Shown here one piece after another: positions 2,119-40,705 of a stretch of DNA of 42,050 bases. A model generated the notes under the pieces. It searched no databases. It saw only the letters and a list, made by a program, of their open reading frames with translations, and was not told the DNA's origin. The stretch lies in the IMG/VR virus record IMGVR_UViG_2609459854_000002; one strand, 5' to 3'. Numbering within the stretch: the stretch's first letter is position 1; every line of letters begins with the position of its first letter. Made by a program: the position numbers and the translations under genes. Source of the DNA: a virus (taxonomy: Duplodnaviria > Heunggongvirae > Uroviricota > Caudoviricetes).

Positions 2119-3915
2119 TTAGAACTCCTTCACATCTGCGCCAGAAGACACGCTCCAGATCGAAACAGGCGACCCGTTTACACCTATTAACCTTGCTTTC
2201 AACCCATTTCCGCTTGCTCTTGGTACGGTTAAATTTGCAACAGATGGATTTATAGCCCAATCTCCACCATTTAATATGACACTCATTTCAACTACGCCAC
2301 CATTATCAATATCTATTATAGGTGTTTGCACTACCGGGCTTTGTTGATCAATTGGCAGAAAGCCATTGACAATAATAGATGGTCTGAATGATGGGTTTCC
2401 CTGAACGCTAACACGAAGTTGCCCACCCTTAACAAATTCTGTTGCACAAGTATTCATGACAATGCAATACGGATTTACAAAATCAAATGCATAGCAAATT
2501 GACTCCCCATCCATTGGCGTGCAGTTTTCAGCAGTACAATTGGTCATGGTAGTATATTGCATTCCTGACATTCTAAATGACAACTGGTAACCGTTAACCT
2601 GAACAAGGCGCATATCCATAGAAGTGCCTATTACTTTTATTTGACCATCCCTAAAATCTTCAAATAAAACTCCAGCATATCCTTTCCCTGGATATTGTGG
2701 GAAACCGACCATTTCCATTACGCCAGAGAACGGCACATAAGAGAAGCATCCGATATAAGCACATTCAAAAATTGACTGTCTGATAACTGGTGCTGCTGAT
2801 TTTCCTAAAAACAGTCCGTAATAATTTCTATAAGAATCTACGTTTTCTTGTGTTAAGCCAAGCCTTCTAAACATGCAGTTTTCAACTCTACCGTTAACAC
2901 AAAATGAACTCATTGAGTTATCTGTTAGATCCCATTGCTTTGGTATAAAAGCACATAATGCATCCACCTGAAGAATTACTTCTCCATTTTTTGTGAGATC
3001 TATTTTGTCATTTGTTGTTTTATAAAAAACTGTCGCTTCAGCCTTTCCCTGTCCTCTAATTCCCATATTGTCATAAATTGGGATTGTTTTTGATGTATTT
3101 ATGTTTCCAGCAGGAGCCTCTAGAATGCATTTGTTTGAGCGGGCAAAGTTAGTTGCAAGAGTTATAGCTGTTGCGTTATCTGTGACTCCGTCAGGTTTCA
3201 CCCCCCAAAATTGCATGTCGTAAGTGGTAAAATTAATTCGTCTCCATACCATCGTTCCAGTTTCTGGCTTGATTACAATTCCACCATCATCAGCCCACGC
3301 CTGAATGTTATCAACAGACTCGAAAAAGCCGCCACCAAGGTGGTTTTCAGCATGTGTAGTGCTAGCTGCTGATGCTACGTATACAATCTGCCCCGCCTCC
3401 TCTGGAACACAGGAGCGAAGCTCTGAAAGATTGAGAAAGCGGCCAATAGCGTTAAATCCTGTTTTATCAATTAATGAATCATGTGTAGCTTTCAAGATCT
3501 CCAGCTCAATCTTTACGGTTGTGCCTCCATAACCAACCAGAGATGCGCCATCAGGGCCAGAAAGCTCAGCCCTTAACTGGTCTGGAGAATATTTCAGTAG
3601 ATCAGGATAATAGAATTGTTGTGCGCCATACGCATCATATACAGCCATGGAGTGATTCTGTACAGTTACGAACTTGGCAATCTGTCCGTTATATACCGGA
3701 TATCCAGCAGCGTTAATGATGATTGGTTGAGAAACAGGAACGTGCGAGCCGTCTTCGTTCTCTACATAAACCTGAATCTGGTTTTCTGGATTTACCGGGT
3801 CAGTGTCAACCTGACCGATATAAATTTTGCCATTGGCTACGGCTTTAAAAGAACGCGCCATAGTGAAGAGTTGCGAAGGCATCGATACGATCACATTGGC
3901 TGTAATGTCTGTCAT
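2119..3915 (-). CDS. Tailspike protein (P22 gp9-like head-binding domain, distinct receptor-binding body)
   Basis: 598-aa ORF; first ~110 residues ([59 protein letters not shown]...) closely match the P22 tailspike N-terminus as I recall it; the remainder does not match the P22 endorhamnosidase domain. Confidence 0.85.
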
Positions 3916-22120: not shown

Positions 22121-22651
22121 TCACACCATTCCGGGCAAATACATTTGCACTTCATTTGCCGCTCTCTCACGTGCAACATGAAGCAATCTTTTTCGCCCAC
22201 CAACGCCCCACTTAGCCATTTGGCTTGCGCACTGGCTTATCGCTTTGGTTTCAGTATTGATGATGTGATCGATTCTATTCAGACGGGACATTGCGCCAAC
22301 GCCGAGACGGACAACCGTTTTGAAAACTTCATAAACTTCGATTTCAAATTCCGGCTTAATCCATGCTGCATATCTGATTGCCAGAAGTTCAACACCCCAC
22401 ACACCTGGTTCTGCACCACCTTTGATTATTTTAAGTGGTTGAATTTGTTCCAAAGTGCTTTTTTGCACTTTGGCCTCCAGTGCTTTTATGAAGCGTTTTA
22501 TCTGCGCGCTACGCAAAAACTGGCTTGGGCGCTGTTGCTCTGTAGCCTCTCCATTTGCAACTGCTGCTGCATGGAGATCGTTTAAGTTGTAGCGTCCATC
22601 CTCATCAACACGAACGGACACACCATTGACAATAACTGTTGGGTACTTCAT
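22121..22651 (-). CDS. KilA-N domain protein
   Basis: N-terminus MKYPTVIVNGVSVRVDEDGRYNLNDLHAAA resembles KilA-N DNA-binding domains; 176 aa. Confidence 0.55.
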   Translation of the reverse strand: MKYPTVIVNGVSVRVDEDGRYNLNDLHAAAVANGEATEQQRPSQFLRSAQIKRFIKALEAKVQKSTLEQIQPLKIIKGGAEPGVWGVELLAIRYAAWIKPEFEIEVYEVFKTVVRLGVGAMSRLNRIDHIINTETKAISQCASQMAKWGVGGRKRLLHVARERAANEVQMYLPGMV

Positions 22652-22796
22652 CAGTGATTACCTTTTAGTGATGAACCTTGTCACACAGGATTCCGGCCCA
22701 CAGAAAGGCACCGATCACCAAACCGGCATCCTCAAGGGTCATCCTGAAAGGTTCTGTGTTCAGAAGTCGCGCGTGTGAAGCGCGTTTGTTGCAGAT

Positions 22797-22822
22797 ATAA
22801 AAAAGCCCCGCGAATGCGAGGC
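22797..22822 (-). terminator. Rho-independent terminator downstream of the lysis cassette
   Basis: Minus-strand hairpin GCCTCGC attc GCGGGGC (7-bp stem, one G-U pair) followed by UUUUUU. Confidence 0.55.
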
Positions 22823-22996
22823 TAAATCCTGGTGTTTGTGATGACTGGCTCTTATCTCAACGCAGCCCCTTACCGCGCGCCATATGCTCAATATCAAGCA
22901 TCAGCAATGAGATGTTTAATCTGGATTCACTCCAGAAGTGATCATCACCCTGTCTACAGAGCCAGATGTGAATGATGATGAGTAAAATTATCGCTA

Positions 22997-23455
22997 TCAT
23001 CGAAGGCATTGCGTCCTGATGTATTCCTGCAGGTAGTTAACCTGCGCGGTTATCCTGTCGATTCCACTTCGGAGACGGTAATAATTGAGTTCAGCATCTG
23101 CTGTAAGTCTTGGGCTTTCTCCATCGCCCATGCTGCTGGCTCCGGTCGTTGACTTTGCACAGGTGGCGGCGACTTGCAGGCGCTTACGACCAGCAGAAAC
23201 ATCAGCACGGAGACTTTCGATAGTCGCATTAGCATCAGCAAGCTCCTTTGTGTATCTGGCGTCAAGTTCTGCAACATCACGCTGACGCTGCTGCATGTCA
23301 GCGATGGTGGCGGTCGCCTGCTTCAGCTCACTGACTTTTTTATCACGCTGTTCTTTGTAGGCGATGGCGTTATCACGGTAATGATTAACACCCCATGACA
23401 GGCAGACGACGATGCAGATAACCAGAGCGGAGATAATCGCGGTTACTCTGTTCAT
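22997..23455 (-). CDS. Rz: Rz i-spanin
   Basis: [34 protein letters not shown]... closely matches lambda Rz as recalled; start placed at ATG adjacent to endolysin stop. Confidence 0.85.
23050..23229 (-). CDS. Rz1: Rz1 o-spanin lipoprotein (embedded in Rz, +1 frame)
   Basis: Embedded ORF with signal/lipobox-like [10 protein letters not shown] followed by Pro-rich segment [13 protein letters not shown]; start approximate. Confidence 0.7.
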
Positions 23456-23955
23456 TGCTGACCCCACAAACAGATTTCACGCTCAATCTCACGACGAGTC
23501 ATGAGACCTTTCCATTGCTTACCGCCAGCATATGTCCAGCGACGTAGCTGATCACATGCGCCTTTGATATCGCCCTGGTTTATTTTGCGAAGAAGCGTCG
23601 ATGTTCTGAAATTGCCAGCACCCACGTTGTAAACGAATGAGTAAAGAGCGCCGCGCATTGTTTCCGGTATATCGACTTTGATGTACGGGTTAATTTGTCT
23701 GGCGACCGTGGCAAGGTCTTTATTCAGGAGAGCTTTGCATTCTGCTTCGGTATACGTTTTACCGAGCATGATGTCTTTTCCTGTATGCCCGTAACATACA
23801 GTCCATACACCAACTATGTCTTTGTAAGGATTATGTCTCACACCTTCCAGACCATCGTTACCACTTGGGCCAGTGATTAACACAGATGCTATAGCAATAG
23901 CCCCGCCACTTATCGCCGCTATTACGCTATTTCGTAGTGCCGGTGACATTGCCAT
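23452..23955 (-). CDS. SAR endolysin (lysozyme, phage 21 R-like)
   Basis: N-terminal signal-anchor-release segment [19 protein letters not shown] and body ...[29 protein letters not shown]... match P21-type lysozyme as recalled. Confidence 0.85.
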
Positions 23956-26212: not shown

Positions 26213-26387
26213 CGTCTTCTTCCTCGTACATTGAGCTATTCGGATCGCTCATCAGTTCTGCACAGCAATCGGAGCACACATGAACTTCCAGCACATGCAG
26301 CTTCTGACCGCAGTTAGCGCACGTTAAAGCCCGCTCGACGCTTTCTTTCTGGTATTGAAGGGATTGGGATGGGCTAAGCATTAACAA
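26205..26387 (-). CDS. Small zinc-ribbon-like protein
   Basis: 60 aa with two CxxC pairs (CANCGQ ... CSDCC) and acidic tail. Confidence 0.4.
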   Translation of the reverse strand: MLMLSPSQSLQYQKESVERALTCANCGQKLHVLEVHVCSDCCAELMSDPNSSMYEEEDDE

Positions 26388-27324
26388 CCTCCATACAAAC
26401 TTTCACGAATGCCGTTGCTACTTCTGCATTGATTGCGTTTCCATATCCAATAATTCGCTGATCTTGATTGCGCTTTGCCATTCTTCCCAGTGTGGACTTG
26501 CCTCGTCCCAAGCTTTTGGCAATGCCATTAACCATCGGGAATGAGCCGGGTCTAACTGGACGATATTTTTCATCTCTACAGTAAAGCCAGTCTGCATCTC
26601 TCCAGAAGCCGTTAACCGGTAATGGGTACATAGCTTCACCGTCCCGGGAAGTTTCAAGCAGATTCTTGGGGTTCCGCTCTTGTCTTTTCCGCTGTAGCAA
26701 TGCGTTGAACCTGTTGCATCGTTCGCTAAAGGAGTTTGCCATCCAGCTAGTCTCACGCATCCAGATAGGTTCTGAATTCCCCTGCGTGTCTCTGGCTGAA
26801 AGTTGATATTTGTCGTTGGAGTAGGCCACCCAATACAATCGCTGCCTGATGTGCGGAGAACCGAAGCCCGCAGCGCAAATATCGGTACCTGCAGAGGTGT
26901 AGTTCGCACCTTCCAAGTCAGTTTGTACAAGGTCGAGCCAAGCGAGGCCGTCTGCGCTTGCAACCTGTTCGCCAATAACGATGCCAGGATTGCATTTTTC
27001 AATAAGCCAGAAGAATGCCGGCCATAAGTGCCGCTCGTCATCAACCCCTTTTCCTTTGCCTGCCGAGCTGAAAGGTTGGCATGGGCAACTTCCTGTCCAG
27101 ATACTCTTGTTGTCTGGCCATCCTGCTTTTCTAAGTGCATAGCTCCAAACTCCGATTCCTGCAAAAAAGTGGTGCTGGGTAAATCCTCGCAAATCACCTG
27201 GTGTGACATCTTCAATACTCCTTTCATCTACATAACCGGGGGCAATTTCTCCAGCTTCAATTAAGTTACGCAGCCATTGCGCTGCATACGGATCTATTTC
27301 GTTGTAATACGCAGTCATCGTCAT
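26374..27324 (-). CDS. DNA (cytosine-5)-methyltransferase (orphan, no adjacent restriction gene seen)
   Basis: Contains FAGIGV (AdoMet-binding motif I-like) and PCQPFS (catalytic motif IV PC dipeptide); start placed at ATG adjacent to ninE stop. Confidence 0.8.
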
Positions 27325-27497
27325 TTCCTCGCACGATGTCTTAGCCACCGGATATCCCACAGGTGAGCCGTGTAGTTGAAGGTTTTTACGTCAGATTCTT
27401 TTGGGATTGGCTTGCGTTTATTTCTGGAGCGTTTCGTTGGAAGGTATTTGCAGTTTTCGCAGATGATATCGGTGAAACTTCGTCGCTGTCGCCTCAT
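27321..27497 (-). CDS. ninE: NinE-like protein
   Basis: [58 protein letters not shown] matches lambda NinE as recalled. Confidence 0.7.
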
Positions 27498-27937
27498 GCC
27501 GCCCTGTCTCCCCATCTCGCTTTCCACTCCAGAGCCAGTCGCGCTTCGTCTGACCACTTAACGCCACGTTCTGTACCGAATGCCTGTATAAGCTCTAATA
27601 GCTCCGCAAATTCGCTTACACGCATCCTGCTGGTTGACTGGCCTATTACCACAAAGCCATTCCCGGCAAGGTTAGGAACAACATCCTGCTGCTTTAATGC
27701 TGCGGTAAACACACACTTCCAGCTTTCTGCATCCAGCCAGCGACCATGCCATTCAACCTGACGAGAGACGTCACCAAGGCAAGCCCAAAGCTTTCGATTC
27801 TGGTCTAAGCTGCGGTTGCGTTCCTGAATGGTTACTACGATTGGTTTGGTTGGGTCTGGAAGAATTTGCTGTACCGCGTGAATAGCGTTCTGCTGATGGA
27901 TGGGGCTTCTTAGTTCAAACGTTAGTTTCCTCACCAT
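27494..27937 (-). CDS. ninB: NinB (Orf) recombination mediator
   Basis: 147 aa; near-identical to lambda NinB as recalled (…[56 protein letters not shown]…). Confidence 0.85.
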
Positions 27938-28081
27938 TTACGCTCCTGTAATCGTCAAGTGCAGCTGCAATAGTCCCTATCGGGTCATGGTCTTGTCCGA
28001 TAATCTCATTTACGTTTTCATCTTCTTCCACACCGAAAAAGAATCGCAGGGCTAACATGATTTCTTCGTATGCGCTCATAC

Positions 28082-28333
28082 TCACTCCTTCACTTTGATT
28101 CCAGCGGCGCGGATGGCGTCAGCGCAATAATCGATAGCGCAGTTGTGTCCTTTGTCGAAATCATCCTCAGCCATCACTTTGTCATCGAGTTTTATCTCGA
28201 TAGCTGCGCGAGACTTAACCCATGACTGCCAGGCAATCATCTTGATGGCCTGAACGTGAAGTTCTTCGCTGTTGTTAATAGACTCGAACTCTTCACCAAA
28301 CCACTCCAAAAACTGCTTTCTTGATTCGTCCAT
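28082..28333 (-). CDS. Hypothetical acidic protein
   Basis: ORF 28082..28345 in track; likely start at second ATG (MDESRKQF) which has GGAG upstream. Confidence 0.4.
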   Translation of the reverse strand: MDESRKQFLEWFGEEFESINNSEELHVQAIKMIAWQSWVKSRAAIEIKLDDKVMAEDDFDKGHNCAIDYCADAIRAAGIKVKE

Positions 28334-28360
28334 ATCACTCTCCATCGATGATTTTTTGGG

Positions 28361-28543
28361 TTACCAATAATATTTGATAGTCGCCATAATTATCGGTAGC
28401 AACGCGCAGACGACTGAAAACCGTAAAACAAAACCTACCCCCAATATGCGATATGCATTATTCCAGAGAACAAAACTCATCATCAGAAGGAATCCATGAA
28501 AAATCGCGACAAGAAATAAACTACAAATAAACGCATTTACCAT
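28361..28543 (-). CDS. Small two-helix membrane protein
   Basis: 60 aa almost entirely hydrophobic (…FICSLFLVAIFHGFLLMMSFVLW… …VVCALLPIIMATIKYYW); GAGG upstream of ATG. Confidence 0.4.
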   Translation of the reverse strand: MVNAFICSLFLVAIFHGFLLMMSFVLWNNAYRILGVGFVLRFSVVCALLPIIMATIKYYW

Positions 28544-28629
28544 CGGTACTTACCCCTCGCTCTTAATCCAATAAAAAAGGGCTACTGTGTAAATAGCCCC
28601 TGTTATTAGCTCAGTGATGTAGATGGTCA

Positions 28630-30066
28630 TCAGAATCCTCCTTTCTTCTTGGACTGCGGTTCCTCGCGTTCACGGCGGCGCATTTCAGCAGACTGTTGGT
28701 CTGTGTCATAAATAGCGCCATTTGCCTGAATGCAATACACCGTGCCGGTATTGCCATGACGATTGAGACGAAGGATTAGTTCGGTTTCACCAGGTGGAAC
28801 ACTGTCATCAAAAGCGCCTTCACGATGGATCCCAACCCAATAATCGCAATCCTGTTCAATCTGCCCTGTATCTCGTGAGTCACTTGGTAATGGGCGTTTA
28901 TTGGTTCGGCTTTCCAGTGCGCGGTTAAGCTGTGTCAGAAGCACAACAACGCAATCAAGCTCTTTGGCAAGGTTCTTCAGTCCTTTGGTGATCATGCCGT
29001 AAGCAAGGTCGTTGCGATCGGCCTTCTCAGCAGTCATTAGTGTCAGGTAATCGACCAGAATCATGCCAACACATCCTTTTTCTCGCTTGATTCGACGGCT
29101 TTCGCTGACGATTTGAGCCAGAGATAATCCCGGCGTGTCGTCGATGTAAAGCATGTCGATTTCACTCAAGCGATTGGCTGTTTCGATCGCCCTGTTGAAG
29201 TCACCATCGTAATCACCCTGATAGCCGTCATCGGCGTCATTTGTCGCCGGAAGGTAAAAAATATTCGGGTTAACACCAGACTTCTGCCCTACCAGTTTTT
29301 CCAGTATCTGATCACCTGGCATTTCAAGGCTGAACATCAGAGCGGGCTTTTTCTCATGCACTGCGCAGTTGATTGCCATCTGGCTGTATAGCGTCGTTTT
29401 CCCCATCTTAGGGCGAGCGCCAATGACAAACAGAGAGCCTTTCACCAGACCTTTCGGTGACAGCATCCTGTCCAGCGATGGGATCCCTGTGCTCATTCCT
29501 CGCTGTTCGCCTGACGGGTCAAATCGCTTCTCAAGGTCGCTAACCCAGTCTTCCATGACCTCACCAAATGAGCGAAGGCCGCGACGCGATCCGGTTTTTG
29601 CATGGTCTGTCAGTTGCGTGAAAATCGCCTGAATAGCTTCGTACTTCTGCGTTGCAGTCATTCCGTTGCGGGAATAGAGCAATTCCGTCGCTTCAGTCAT
29701 GCGGTTGATGGCGTAGCGTTCCATTGCGGTTTCACGAACCTGCATTGCATAGGCAACGATGTTTGCTGCGCTTGGCGTGTTCTTTGCGATCTCAGCGATA
29801 TAAGCAAAACCGCCAACAGACGCCGTTAACGATTTACGCTCCAGTTCATCGAAAAGCGTCAGGCCATCTACTGGCTTTTGCTCCCGGTGCATTCTGGTTA
29901 TTTCTTCGAAAAGGATTTTGTGTGGTCGGCTGTAAAATGAATCGGGCTTCAGCATCGCTAGAACTTTCTGGACGCGCTCACTGCTGTCATCATCCAGAAG
30001 CAATCCACCAATCACCGCCTGCTCTGCCTCGATGCTATGGGGCGGAGCATAAAAATTATCGGTCAT
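28630..30066 (-). CDS. Replicative DNA helicase, DnaB-like (P22 gp12-like)
   Basis: Walker A GARPKMGKTT and DnaB-type motifs; start placed at MTDNFYAPPHS. Confidence 0.85.
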   Translation of the reverse strand: MTDNFYAPPHSIEAEQAVIGGLLLDDDSSERVQKVLAMLKPDSFYSRPHKILFEEITRMHREQKPVDGLTLFDELERKSLTASVGGFAYIAEIAKNTPSAANIVAYAMQVRETAMERYAINRMTEATELLYSRNGMTATQKYEAIQAIFTQLTDHAKTGSRRGLRSFGEVMEDWVSDLEKRFDPSGEQRGMSTGIPSLDRMLSPKGLVKGSLFVIGARPKMGKTTLYSQMAINCAVHEKKPALMFSLEMPGDQILEKLVGQKSGVNPNIFYLPATNDADDGYQGDYDGDFNRAIETANRLSEIDMLYIDDTPGLSLAQIVSESRRIKREKGCVGMILVDYLTLMTAEKADRNDLAYGMITKGLKNLAKELDCVVVLLTQLNRALESRTNKRPLPSDSRDTGQIEQDCDYWVGIHREGAFDDSVPPGETELILRLNRHGNTGTVYCIQANGAIYDTDQQSAEMRRREREEPQSKKKGGF

Positions 30067-30946
30067 CGTGTTCACCCTCACGAACTTTCAGGTAGGTATT
30101 ATCGTTAAGCAGGAAATCAAATCCCTTTTTGTGCCAGACAGTTCCGCGTTGATGGTTTGGGCGTTCTTCGAACATCCATCGGCAATTTTCGCCTACGTAG
30201 CTCAAATAATTTCTCCAGTCCTGCATCGTGAACCCATGCCCGTCAAGCTGGCGGGTTATCACTCCGGCTTTGCGCCAGAACGTTCGGATCTGGTTTTTAC
30301 GCTTGTCATTCAGTGCGCGGATTTTTGGCGCTTCAGGAAGGATTTCGTGGTAAGCATCGACAACATCCTGACAGCTGACGGAAGGTTTTTTCTTGTCAGA
30401 CTTTTTGTCTGCTGTGGCACTCTCTAATACGTCAGTATTAGAGATATTATTTATATTATTGTTTATGGACAACCGTTGGACAACCGTTGGACAATCTCCG
30501 CTGAGAGCCGCGCCATTACTGGTGTTTGCGTTGGACAACCGTTGGACAACCGTTGGACAATTTTTTGCCTGAAAATCGTCATATTTAACGATTGTAAACA
30601 GGCTAAATTTCTTCCCCATCGAGCAAATATTAAGCATCCCTTTCGACTCAAAAGTCCGTAATAAGCTCCGAACTTTGTTGTCGGGAATGAATGTTTCTCT
30701 GACCAGCGACGGGCGTCCAGTTATCATCTGACCGCGCTCAACAGTTATCGGACCGATATCCGTATTGACGACAGTAGATTCGTGATTAGCCTTGAGGATT
30801 AAGTGAAGCCAAAGATGTACTGCCTGAGAGTCCTTATAGAGCCTGCTGTCCATAAACTGGCGGTGTATAGAGACATACCCCATACTGGATGCCTCCTGAT
30901 GTTGTACAGGGTTATGCCTGTAATCAGCTAACTTAACGACGCCCAT
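30056..30946 (-). CDS. Replication initiator, O-like (P22 gp18-like) containing the origin iterons
   Basis: 296-aa ORF whose coding sequence contains the tandem iterons (encoding repeated PTVVQRLS); synteny with helicase downstream. Confidence 0.8.
   Translation of the reverse strand: MGVVKLADYRHNPVQHQEASSMGYVSIHRQFMDSRLYKDSQAVHLWLHLILKANHESTVVNTDIGPITVERGQMITGRPSLVRETFIPDNKVRSLLRTFESKGMLNICSMGKKFSLFTIVKYDDFQAKNCPTVVQRLSNANTSNGAALSGDCPTVVQRLSINNNINNISNTDVLESATADKKSDKKKPSVSCQDVVDAYHEILPEAPKIRALNDKRKNQIRTFWRKAGVITRQLDGHGFTMQDWRNYLSYVGENCRWMFEERPNHQRGTVWHKKGFDFLLNDNTYLKVREGEHDDR
30467..30565. repeat. Origin iteron array (ori) inside the O-like gene
   Basis: Six 11-bp units GGACAACCGTT (four perfect, two truncated GGACAAT...) in two clusters of three, flanked by an AT-rich stretch at 30430..30466. 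Confidence 0.75.
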
Positions 30947-31128
30947 GTTTCACTCCTGCTTTGGCTAGTCTGTAAACACCAACAAGGCGCTCTGCGAACG
31001 CCCTGTTATTTGCTGCGGCTACCACTAATCCCTCAGGTGAATCAGGGTGTCGAATCTCTTCTTTTTCCTGGTATTTCTTACGACGTTTTGTCATAATTAC
31101 TCCTGTGGATTGATCCAGTCTTTCTACA

Positions 31129-31407
31129 TCAGGCCTCGAAGAATTCGCCGTTCTTCGGGGCTTTTTCTTTTGTCAGCATTCTGGCTACTTTCTTAGCCAG
31201 CTCCGCCAACTCCTCGTCTTCAACACCCCATTCAAGAACAGCCAGAAGCATTCCCATTTTTGGGATGAAGCTGTCTTTCCATCGAGAAATTTGCGATTCA
31301 TTAATCCCTAACGCGTCGGCAACCTTTCGCTGACCACGTACAGCAATTCGATTCAGGATGTTGCTTGTAATTGCATTCGCTTTCTTGCGAGTACTTGTAA
31401 GTTGCAT
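31129..31407 (-). CDS. CII-like transcriptional activator
   Basis: Contains ...SQISRWKDSFIPKMGMLLAVLEWGVEDEELAELAKKVARML... matching the lambda CII helix-turn-helix and C-terminal region as recalled; start at internal ATG. Confidence 0.7.
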   Translation of the reverse strand: MQLTSTRKKANAITSNILNRIAVRGQRKVADALGINESQISRWKDSFIPKMGMLLAVLEWGVEDEELAELAKKVARMLTKEKAPKNGEFFEA

Positions 31408-32953: not shown

Positions 32954-33259
32954 ATGACAGTAGTCATTACATATCTGGCTGACGATAACGCCAGAAATCG
33001 CCGCAGAGCACGCAGACAGGCTCAACGTGAACAGGCAATGCAAGAGCAGCGACTGGCGCGAAAAATTGCGCTAAAGCTCTCTGGTTGCGTCAGAGCAGAT
33101 AAAGCAGCATCACTCGGAAGCCTTCGCTGCAAGAAGGCAGAAGAAGTCGAGCGTAAACAGAACCGTATTTACTACCGCAAGCCACGCAGTGAAATGGGGG
33201 TGACTTGTGTTGGCCGCCAGAAGCAACGCGGAAAATCAATTCCAGCTTATTACGATTGA
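32954..33259 (+). CDS. N-like transcription antiterminator
   Basis: 101 aa with arginine-rich N-terminal motif (NARNRRRARRQAQREQ); C-terminal half resembles phage 21 N as recalled; first gene downstream of candidate pL/nutL. Confidence 0.65.
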   Translation: MTVVITYLADDNARNRRRARRQAQREQAMQEQRLARKIALKLSGCVRADKAASLGSLRCKKAEEVERKQNRIYYRKPRSEMGVTCVGRQKQRGKSIPAYYD

Positions 33260-39584: not shown

Positions 39585-40632
39585 GCGCCGGGATTTACCC
39601 CCTAACCTTTATATAAGAAACAATGGATATTACTGCTACAGGGACCCAAGGACGGGTAAAGAGTTCGGATTAGGCAGAGACAGGAGGATAGCAATTACTG
39701 AAGCAATACAGGCAAACATTGAGTTATTTTCAGGACACAAACACAAGCCTCTGACAGCAAGAATCAACAGTGATAATTCTGTTACGCTACATTCATGGCT
39801 TGATCGCTACGAAAAAATACTCGCCAGCAGAGGAATCAAGCAGAAGACACTCATAAATTACATGAGCAAAATTAAAGCAATAAGGAGGGGTCTGCCTGAT
39901 GCTCCACTTGAAGACATCACCACAAAAGAAATTGCGGCAATGCTTAATGGATACATAGACGAGGGCAAGGCGGCATCAGCCAAGTTAATCAGATCAACAC
40001 TGAGCGATGCATTCCGAGAGGCAATAGCTGAAGGCCATATAACAACAAACCCGGTCGCTGCCACTCGCGCAGCAAAATCAGAGGTAAGGAGATCAAGGCT
40101 TACGGCTGACGAATACCTGAAAATTTATCAAGCAGCAGAATCATCACCATGTTGGCTAAGACTTGCAATGGAACTGGCTGTTGTTACCGGGCAGAGAGTT
40201 GGTGATTTATGCGAAATGAAGTGGTCTGATATCGTAGATGGATATCTTTATGTCGAGCAAAGCAAAACAGGCGTAAAAATTGCCATCCCAACAGCATTGC
40301 ATGTTGATGCTCTCGGAATATCAATGAAGGAAACACTTGATAAATGCAAAGAGATTCTTGGCGGAGAAACCATAATTGCATCTACTCGTCGCGAACCGCT
40401 TTCATCCGGCACAGTATCAAGGTATTTTATGCGCGCACGAAAAGCATCAGGTCTTTCCTTCGAAGGGGATCCGCCTACCTTTCACGAGTTGCGCAGTTTG
40501 TCTGCAAGACTCTATGAGAAGCAGATAAGCGATAAGTTTGCTCAACATCTTCTCGGGCATAAGTCGGACACCATGGCATCACAGTATCGTGATGACAGAG
40601 GCAGGGAGTGGGACAAAATTGAAATCAAATAA
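39562..40632 (+). CDS. int: Tyrosine integrase (lambda Int-like)
   Basis: 356 aa, same length as lambda Int; N-terminus MGRRRSHERRDLPPNLYIRNNGYYCYRDPRTGKEFGLGRDRRIAITEAIQAN matches as recalled; overlaps xis as in lambda. Confidence 0.95.
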   Translation: MGRRRSHERRDLPPNLYIRNNGYYCYRDPRTGKEFGLGRDRRIAITEAIQANIELFSGHKHKPLTARINSDNSVTLHSWLDRYEKILASRGIKQKTLINYMSKIKAIRRGLPDAPLEDITTKEIAAMLNGYIDEGKAASAKLIRSTLSDAFREAIAEGHITTNPVAATRAAKSEVRRSRLTADEYLKIYQAAESSPCWLRLAMELAVVTGQRVGDLCEMKWSDIVDGYLYVEQSKTGVKIAIPTALHVDALGISMKETLDKCKEILGGETIIASTRREPLSSGTVSRYFMRARKASGLSFEGDPPTFHELRSLSARLYEKQISDKFAQHLLGHKSDTMASQYRDDRGREWDKIEIK

Positions 40633-40705
40633 TGATTTTATTTTGACTGATAGTGACCTGTTCGTTGCAACAAATTGATAAGCAATGCTTTTTTATAATA
40701 CCAAC

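Follow-up and report, generated by a model that had tools for sequence, protein, structure and literature searches.

The ninA/tR2 module and a conserved gene for a predicted membrane hairpin protein at the replication-nin junction of a lambdoid prophage

We analyzed the stretch that follows the replicative helicase gene in IMG/VR virus record IMGVR_UViG_2609459854_000002, a Caudoviricetes sequence of 42,050 nucleotides that we call, as a whole, the window. Two short open reading frames (ORFs) lie there in series. ORF1, of 26 codons, is the known gene ninA with a predicted equivalent of the terminator tR2 inside it, and ORF2, of 60 codons, is, judged from its sequence and that of its relatives, a separate gene for a small membrane protein. 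This is the place where the replication genes of a P22-like lambdoid prophage give way to its nin region, and the ORFs of the minus strand run in the order cII-like, O-like, helicase, ORF1, ORF2, an 87-residue ORF, a 56-residue ORF and NinB. The features at the junction are the following, SD standing for Shine-Dalgarno sequence.

28630-30081, minus strand: DnaB-type replicative helicase gene; the near-identical gene of Escherichia coli NCTC8623 is annotated as DnaB-like helicase.
28637-28644, minus strand: AAAGGAGG, SD of ORF1 (ninA), in the last helicase codons, 6 nt ahead of the ATG.
28550-28630, minus strand: ORF1 = ninA, 26 codons (28630-28553) and TAA (28552-28550), peptide MTIYITELITGAIYTVALFYWIKSEG.
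28599-28630, minus strand: ninA leader of 32 nt, ATGACCATCTACATCACTGAGCTAATAACAGG, unchanged after three different upstream genes in the alignment.
28577-28601, minus strand: predicted terminator hairpin, the tR2 equivalent, allele B, AGGGGCTATT-TACAC-AGTAGCCCTT, from terminator scan and folding.
28570-28578, minus strand: terminator U-tract, TTTTTTATT, from the sequence and terminator scan.
28553-28558, minus strand: GAGGGG, SD of ORF2, in the last ninA codons, 9 nt ahead of the ORF2 ATG.
28361-28543, minus strand: ORF2, 60-codon gene for a predicted helical-hairpin membrane protein, with its ATG at 28543, 6 nt past the ORF1 TAA.

The helicase gene ends in TGA at 28632-28630, and the A of this stop is at the same time the A of the ORF1 ATG, a one-base overlap (TGATG, 28632-28628). 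The duplex of AAAGGAGG with the anti-SD has a calculated energy of -11.6 kcal/mol; among 1663 background ATGs of the window, this falls in the top 0.3%. An earlier, sequence-only reading of this DNA had described the overlap of stop and start, the SD of ORF1 and the two hydrophobic ORFs in series, and all of these stand as it described them. Since 78 ORFs of at least 20 residues overlap the 5-kb stretch, ORFs alone are unremarkable here and the case rests on conservation in related sequences. The conservation among related prophages by which that reading proposed to judge the two frames is indeed present: the ORF1 module was recovered at 273 loci, and ORF2 is intact in 41 of the 41 copies at the loci that we fetched.

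Against phrog_5907, ORF1 gives a match of E 1.7e-16 that covers 26 of the 27 profile positions, and lambda NinA matches the same profile at E 1.6e-19. The 32-nt leader is identical in phage L (P22-type), HK75 and HK630, and lambda differs from it by one synonymous base; the identical leader is also found in prophages that have ren or another helicase gene upstream, and it follows seven different gene ends in IMG/VR. It sets the upstream stop about 28-30 nt from the hairpin. Phage L and HK630 carry the homologous ORF under the name ninA or NinA, and the lambda counterpart lies between ren and ninB (lambda 40,570-40,647). The literature on lambda and P22 counts ninA among the standard genes of the nin region. 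The sequence-only reading had held that nothing here resembles the lambda ren or P22 ninA content, which must be withdrawn: ORF1 is a known element, the ninA/tR2 module, present here with a second hairpin allele.

That reading had also overlooked the hairpin and T-run within ORF1 (28601-28570). The hairpin has 10 pairs, four of them G-C, and its fold of -17.7 kcal/mol has a z of -4.3, within a range of -4.3 to -4.9 for the terminator fold. The terminator scan by itself was not above chance, with 1 site versus 1.2 expected. Terminators are annotated at the matching place in phage L, inside ninA, and in HK75. Folding gave -15.4 to -17.4 kcal/mol for four variants of the B/C lineage and for the lambda allele, with a U-tract after each; the stems of the lambda allele and of the window allele differ almost throughout, with the hairpin-plus-U design common to both. 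In the lineage of the window's hairpin, one pair runs through the series U-A, U.G and C-G, and all cells stay paired. The hairpin and U-tract are a predicted intrinsic terminator equivalent to tR2, and transcripts ending in the U-tract would lack the ninA stop, which lies 16-18 nt further downstream. The lambda-type hairpin GGCCTGCTGGTAATCGCAGGCC with its T-run occurs without the ninA leader or ATG at five loci (L256 and four others in IMG/VR), so the tR2 terminator can stand alone elsewhere.

Our ninA sample comprised 273 copies from IMG/VR and reference phages, collected by way of the leader and of each hairpin type; the window's hairpin allele is present in 115 of the fetched loci. Over the whole sample the hairpin architecture is kept, with variation in the stem sequence and in the middle and C-terminal parts of the peptide. 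The core of the peptide is GLLVIAGLFIW with one hairpin allele and GAIYTVALFYW with the other, with polar replacements at two positions (L12Q and I13T), and the length ranges from 24 to 32 codons, one allele being fused in frame to the next gene. At least 24 codons are present in 260 of the 273 copies. In eight copies the frame is shortened, whether through a one-base deletion, through a nonsense codon or in some other way. The broken alleles belong to the L165-type loci (five copies), L174, L153 and L052, and the lesions include a one-base deletion that leaves 7 codons, a GAG-to-TAG nonsense change and an extra T in the U-tract. Such alleles are possible natural experiments on the importance of ninA translation.

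The signals for translation are kept where the peptide is not. An SD-like motif stands 6-8 nt ahead of the ninA ATG at all seven unrelated upstream gene ends, which are those of ren, of three helicase or primase types and of three other genes. The anti-SD duplex energies of these seven contexts are -5.9 to -11.6 kcal/mol, each within the top 7% of the background ATGs, and the overlap of the upstream stop with the ninA ATG recurs in all of them. At the other end, the ninA stop lies about -14 to +14 nt from the next start despite the varied length of the frame and the varied genes downstream. From these signals, ORF1 is very probably translated. As for the hydrophobic character that had drawn attention to it, ORF1 is hydrophobic as described, but this character is largely forced by the overlapping terminator, since T-run codons give L, F, Y or I and GC-rich stem codons give G, A or L, and the middle and the C-terminus of the peptide are unconserved. 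The roles that the sequence-only reading had considered for such peptides, as toxin, exclusion factor or regulator of membrane proteases, are unlikely for ORF1.

ORF2 is annotated neither in NCTC8623 (RefSeq, processed by the Prokaryotic Genome Annotation Pipeline, PGAP) nor in phage Gally, and public records label its protein only as "hypothetical protein". A word-based search returned only 60-residue relatives at 78-100% identity, and close relatives also occur in other nin-region contexts, after a 68-residue gene and after a 106-residue gene. An exhaustive profile search with a second profile round then extended the family to homologues of 61-65 residues at 25-47% identity, with named records from Enterobacter cloacae, Atlantibacter hermannii and an Erwiniaceae bacterium. 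Overall, lambdoid prophages of E. coli, Enterobacter, Atlantibacter and Erwiniaceae have homologues of 60-63 residues at 25-87% identity. Three further matches (P0007, P0010 and P0011) were discarded as long repetitive proteins with compositional matches. Ten members share invariant S23, F24, W27, N29, L34, G35 and R41, and the loop follows the motif SFVxWxNA[YF][RK]xLGxG[YF][VI]xR. Distant pairs differ at a proportion of 0.75-0.86 of synonymous sites (pS), which are saturated, and of 0.37-0.53 of nonsynonymous sites (pN), and for one pair (P0005 and P0013) the ratio of nonsynonymous to synonymous rates (dN/dS) is 0.16. The DNA block shared with ORF2 modules in other contexts begins about 13 nt before the ATG, spans ORF2 and takes in the first 24 nt of the gene that follows; its edge falls inside the SD, so that it takes in GGGG and not the first two bases of GAGGGG. 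All contexts that we examined are early operons of lambdoid prophages: most copies come directly after a helicase or a MarR-like gene, one lineage sits in a leftward operon after Dam, and the start and stop codons of ORF2 usually overlap or abut those of its neighbors. By these sequence comparisons, ORF2 is a genuine separate gene under purifying selection.

The two-helix membrane protein that the sequence-only reading saw in ORF2 is supported, and its AlphaFold model is a helical hairpin (helices 2-26, 30-34 and 36-59, with a break at P50) at a mean predicted local distance difference test score (pLDDT) of 84.5. Family members have 2-4 basic residues in the loop and 0-1 at the termini. The basic loop, which holds the conserved W27, N29, L34, G35 and R41, should be cytoplasmic according to the positive-inside rule. 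On this model, ORF2 would be a 60-residue helical hairpin of the inner membrane, with its loop predicted to face the cytoplasm. Searches for a known family gave a best E of 0.26 in Pfam and of 0.55 in PHROGs, and no match in NCBIfam or PADLOC; a profile search of the PDB returned only CcmD (E 0.11), and a fold search of BFVD reached E 9.2. A promoter scan found no promoter-like site ahead of ORF2 on the minus strand. The plus strand has one such site over the end of ORF2, at 28361-28390, versus 1.9 expected by chance. ORF2 is probably a delayed-early gene that needs read-through of the terminator. As pure inference, its loop may bind a membrane-associated partner, of the host or of the phage, during lytic growth.

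The surroundings bear on how this junction is to be read. Two further features enter the discussion below.

28082-28345, minus strand: gene after ORF2 (83-87 residues, phrog_343), from a profile match; its first 24 nt move together with the ORF2 module.
32954-33259, plus strand: N-like ORF of 101 residues, arginine-rich, with a weak Pfam N_peptide match (E 7.7e-4).

The gene after ORF2 has two candidate starts, ATG 28345 (87 residues) and ATG 28333 (83 residues). The latter, preceded by GGAGAG, is the PGAP choice in the near-identical NCTC8623, and homology in other contexts favors the N-terminus MDESRKQF. Compared with E. coli NCTC8623 (NZ_LR134234.1, 1611745-1653794), the window is identical over 401 nt around ORF1 and ORF2 and 98.4% identical over 27507-31245, with a patchwork likeness elsewhere. 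We considered that the window might be the NCTC8623 prophage itself; the full comparison ruled this out, and it is a different mosaic relative. Beyond the shared part, the NCTC8623 prophage has further nin genes and then a Q-type antiterminator. Between its helicase gene and the 84-residue gene, PGAP annotates nothing. In that gap, which holds ninA and ORF2 (3071-3368 of our NCTC8623 locus, L001), the RefSeq locus tags skip from EL131_RS08010 to EL131_RS08020, and a dropped gene call may once have been present there. Further along the window, at 26374-27360 on the minus strand, is a 328-residue ORF with motifs resembling those of C5 cytosine DNA methyltransferases. A 269-residue ORF (26418-27227) overlaps it in another frame, and in the NCTC8623 prophage the corresponding place is taken by an MT-A70 methyltransferase and ninD/E/X.

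Based on these findings, we propose how ninA may act at the junction. The region would be transcribed on the minus strand from the early rightward promoter. Without antitermination, RNA polymerase would halt in the U-tract, at about 28570, and with N-type antitermination it would continue into the nin genes. Ribosomes that end the helicase gene would start again at the ninA ATG that overlaps its stop. If the transcript reads through, these ribosomes would melt the hairpin, stop 6 nt before ORF2 and hand over to ORF2; on terminated transcripts they would meet no stop codon, and rescue by transfer-messenger RNA (tmRNA) and decay of the mRNA would follow. Selection would thereby keep the act of ninA translation, the peptide being mostly a by-product of the terminator. 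In lambda, 30 bp separate the NinA AUG from the start of tR2, and 16 bp separate the end of tR2 from the stop of the ORF (Li et al. 2015, PMC4824070). The same authors described the lambda ninA start as "not weak" and found that an active start halved the expression of an upstream reporter, that mutating the ninA ribosome-binding site or AUG restored it, and that tR2 is repressed if the upstream stop codon is closer than about 27-30 nt; they ascribed the halved expression to non-stop mRNAs arising from tR2 termination (Li et al. 2015, PMC4824070). Because these published results fit the local anatomy, in which the upstream stop is about 28 nt from the hairpin and terminated transcripts would end 16-18 nt short of the ninA stop, we read ninA as a relay frame. 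Both the relay role and the non-stop role are what we infer for ninA from this comparison.

In its widest form, our proposal is that ninA is kept for loading ribosomes on a frame that spans the terminator. Without N, non-stop mRNAs and tmRNA rescue would lower the expression of the upstream replication genes, and with N, the frame would relay ribosomes into the nin genes; separately, the ORF2 family could form a novel class of phage effectors that use their conserved cytoplasmic loop to act on the membrane of the host. In that reading, the SDs at seven unrelated gene ends would be the evolutionary footprint of a ribosome-loading device. This joint proposal is tentative, and it is doubtful that all of it holds. 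The proposed mechanisms, taken together, seem to us to fall just short of being evenly balanced between right and wrong. We are highly confident of the two identities jointly, that is, ORF1 as ninA/tR2 and ORF2 as a real gene, and moderately so of the account as a whole, with identities and mechanisms combined.

Several observations weigh against what we propose. In lambda, the drop in termination due to ninA translation was only about 10% (Li et al. 2015, PMC4824070), so the regulatory effect on termination itself would be small. The covariation in the hairpin lineage comes from a uniform sample and is too sparse for significance, 147 of 500 shuffles doing as well. The N-like ORF falls below the Pfam N_peptide family cut-off. 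Close relatives of ORF2 show a dN/dS of about 0.5 (11-20 substitutions, no indels). In the ten leader codons of ninA, about 7 distinct synonymous changes stand against 9 mostly conservative nonsynonymous ones, a weak sign that hints at constraint on the peptide.

One rival view is that NinA works in trans as a small membrane peptide with a function of its own, perhaps on a host membrane protein, and that the terminator merely shares its DNA. The SD conserved in seven contexts and the retention of at least 24 codons in 95% of copies would be expected of such a peptide; with both hairpin alleles the peptide has a hydrophobic core, similar in length, and the codon changes at the N-terminus are synonymous or conservative. 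Yet the central 11 residues diverge exactly where the stem sequences differ, polar residues (L12Q and I13T) enter the supposed membrane segment, the C-terminus moves between residues 24 and 32 as it tracks the start of the next gene, eight copies carry frameshift or nonsense alleles, and the codons of the T-run and the GC-rich stem would be hydrophobic whatever the selection. We consider this view unlikely. The opposite view, that ORF1 has no meaningful translation and is a chance frame over a terminator and a conserved recombination linker, draws on the five loci where the hairpin occurs without the leader, on the 32-nt block, which is nearly invariant in DNA as a mosaic joint would be, and on the omission of ORF1 by PGAP and most phage annotations. 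It has to contend with SD-like motifs at seven of seven independent gene ends, which would coincide by chance with a probability of about 0.07^7 at most, with a stop that always adjoins the following start, and with the lambda ninA start, which is experimentally active (Li et al. 2015, PMC4824070). We therefore hold an untranslated ORF1 to be quite improbable.

Turning to ORF2, a chance non-coding ORF in a T-rich spacer might go unannotated in RefSeq and phage Gally and might show the dN/dS of about 0.5 seen among close relatives, but it would hardly have homologues at 25-47% identity that keep its length and loop motif, distant pairs with saturated synonymous sites at pN of 0.37-0.53, one pair with a dN/dS of 0.16, intact frames in all 41 copies, and a homology block that begins about 13 nt before its ATG. 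Such an origin is most improbable. A role for ORF2 as a small toxin of the membrane, as a lysis or holin-like factor or in superinfection exclusion would suit a 60-residue, two-helix hydrophobic protein of an early phage operon, the more so as in related phages this slot often holds other small membrane proteins. Against this, PADLOC, Pfam, PHROGs and NCBIfam gave no match. ORF2 also lies outside the lysis cassette: it sits between the helicase gene and ninB, and the related NCTC8623 prophage has its holin, endolysin and lysis genes elsewhere, at locus coordinates 22216-23463. Since no promoter-like site of its own was found, expression of ORF2 in the lysogen, which exclusion would need, is unlikely. 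Finally, no antisense RNA family was detected, the Rfam search of 27500-29500 giving only a chance match to a CRISPR repeat (E 0.75). We regard a toxin, lysis or exclusion role as rather unlikely.

For annotation, these results mean that ninA/tR2, and not a toxin candidate, is the reading to give to a hydrophobic mini-ORF that directly follows a lambdoid replication gene; the finding as a whole is ordinary for a lambdoid nin region. ORF2 represents a conserved family of 60-residue membrane proteins that PGAP missed and that is absent from Pfam, NCBIfam, PHROGs and PADLOC, and it is worth testing. The survey of ninA adds comparative evidence for selection on its translation, with a peptide largely dictated by the terminator, and makes an old open point on the lambda nin region testable.

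One parallel to ORF2 is phrog_1165 (HK75_43, WP_000229807; 68 residues), which is likewise a small two-helix membrane protein encoded directly after ninA/tR2 and coupled to the ninA stop, but which has no sequence similarity to ORF2 (BLASTP E 2.3). Because both genes co-occur in some prophages, we take them to be analogues and not alleles. The phrog_1165 gene (L005, 947-1153; L007, 1278-1484) begins with a GTG that overlaps the ninA stop by 8 nt. In another IMG/VR locus, L043, the slot after ninA holds a 108-residue protein with a single N-terminal membrane helix, unrelated in sequence to ORF2. T4 Imm, P22 SieB, the holins and the type I toxins Hok and TisB are similar to ORF2 in size and hydrophobicity; they differ from it in that no homology was detected. 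The ORF1 module, for its part, recalls the leader-peptide attenuators of trp and pyrBI, in which a short translated ORF also lies over an intrinsic terminator and the position of the ribosome can affect termination. It differs from them in that no alternative antiterminator hairpin and no regulatory codons were identified in ORF1, that its read-through is expected to depend on N, and that the effect of translation on lambda tR2 is only about 10%. With ninA of lambda, phage L and HK630, ORF1 shares an ATG that overlaps the upstream stop, a length of 26 codons, a hairpin and U-tract from about 30 nt after the ATG, and a stop about 16 nt past the U-tract that adjoins the next start. The lambda module differs in its stem, GGCCTGC-TGGTAATC-GCAGGCC, in place of which the window has GGGGCTATT-TACAC-AGTAGCCC; since this stem-loop is a second allele, residues 12-20 of the peptide differ from those of lambda NinA. 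The downstream partner differs as well, being ninB in lambda and ORF2 in the window. Kroger and Hobom (1982) wrote of the lambda ninR region as a "chain of interlinked genes", and the arrangement that we propose as a relay from ninA to ORF2 matches that description.

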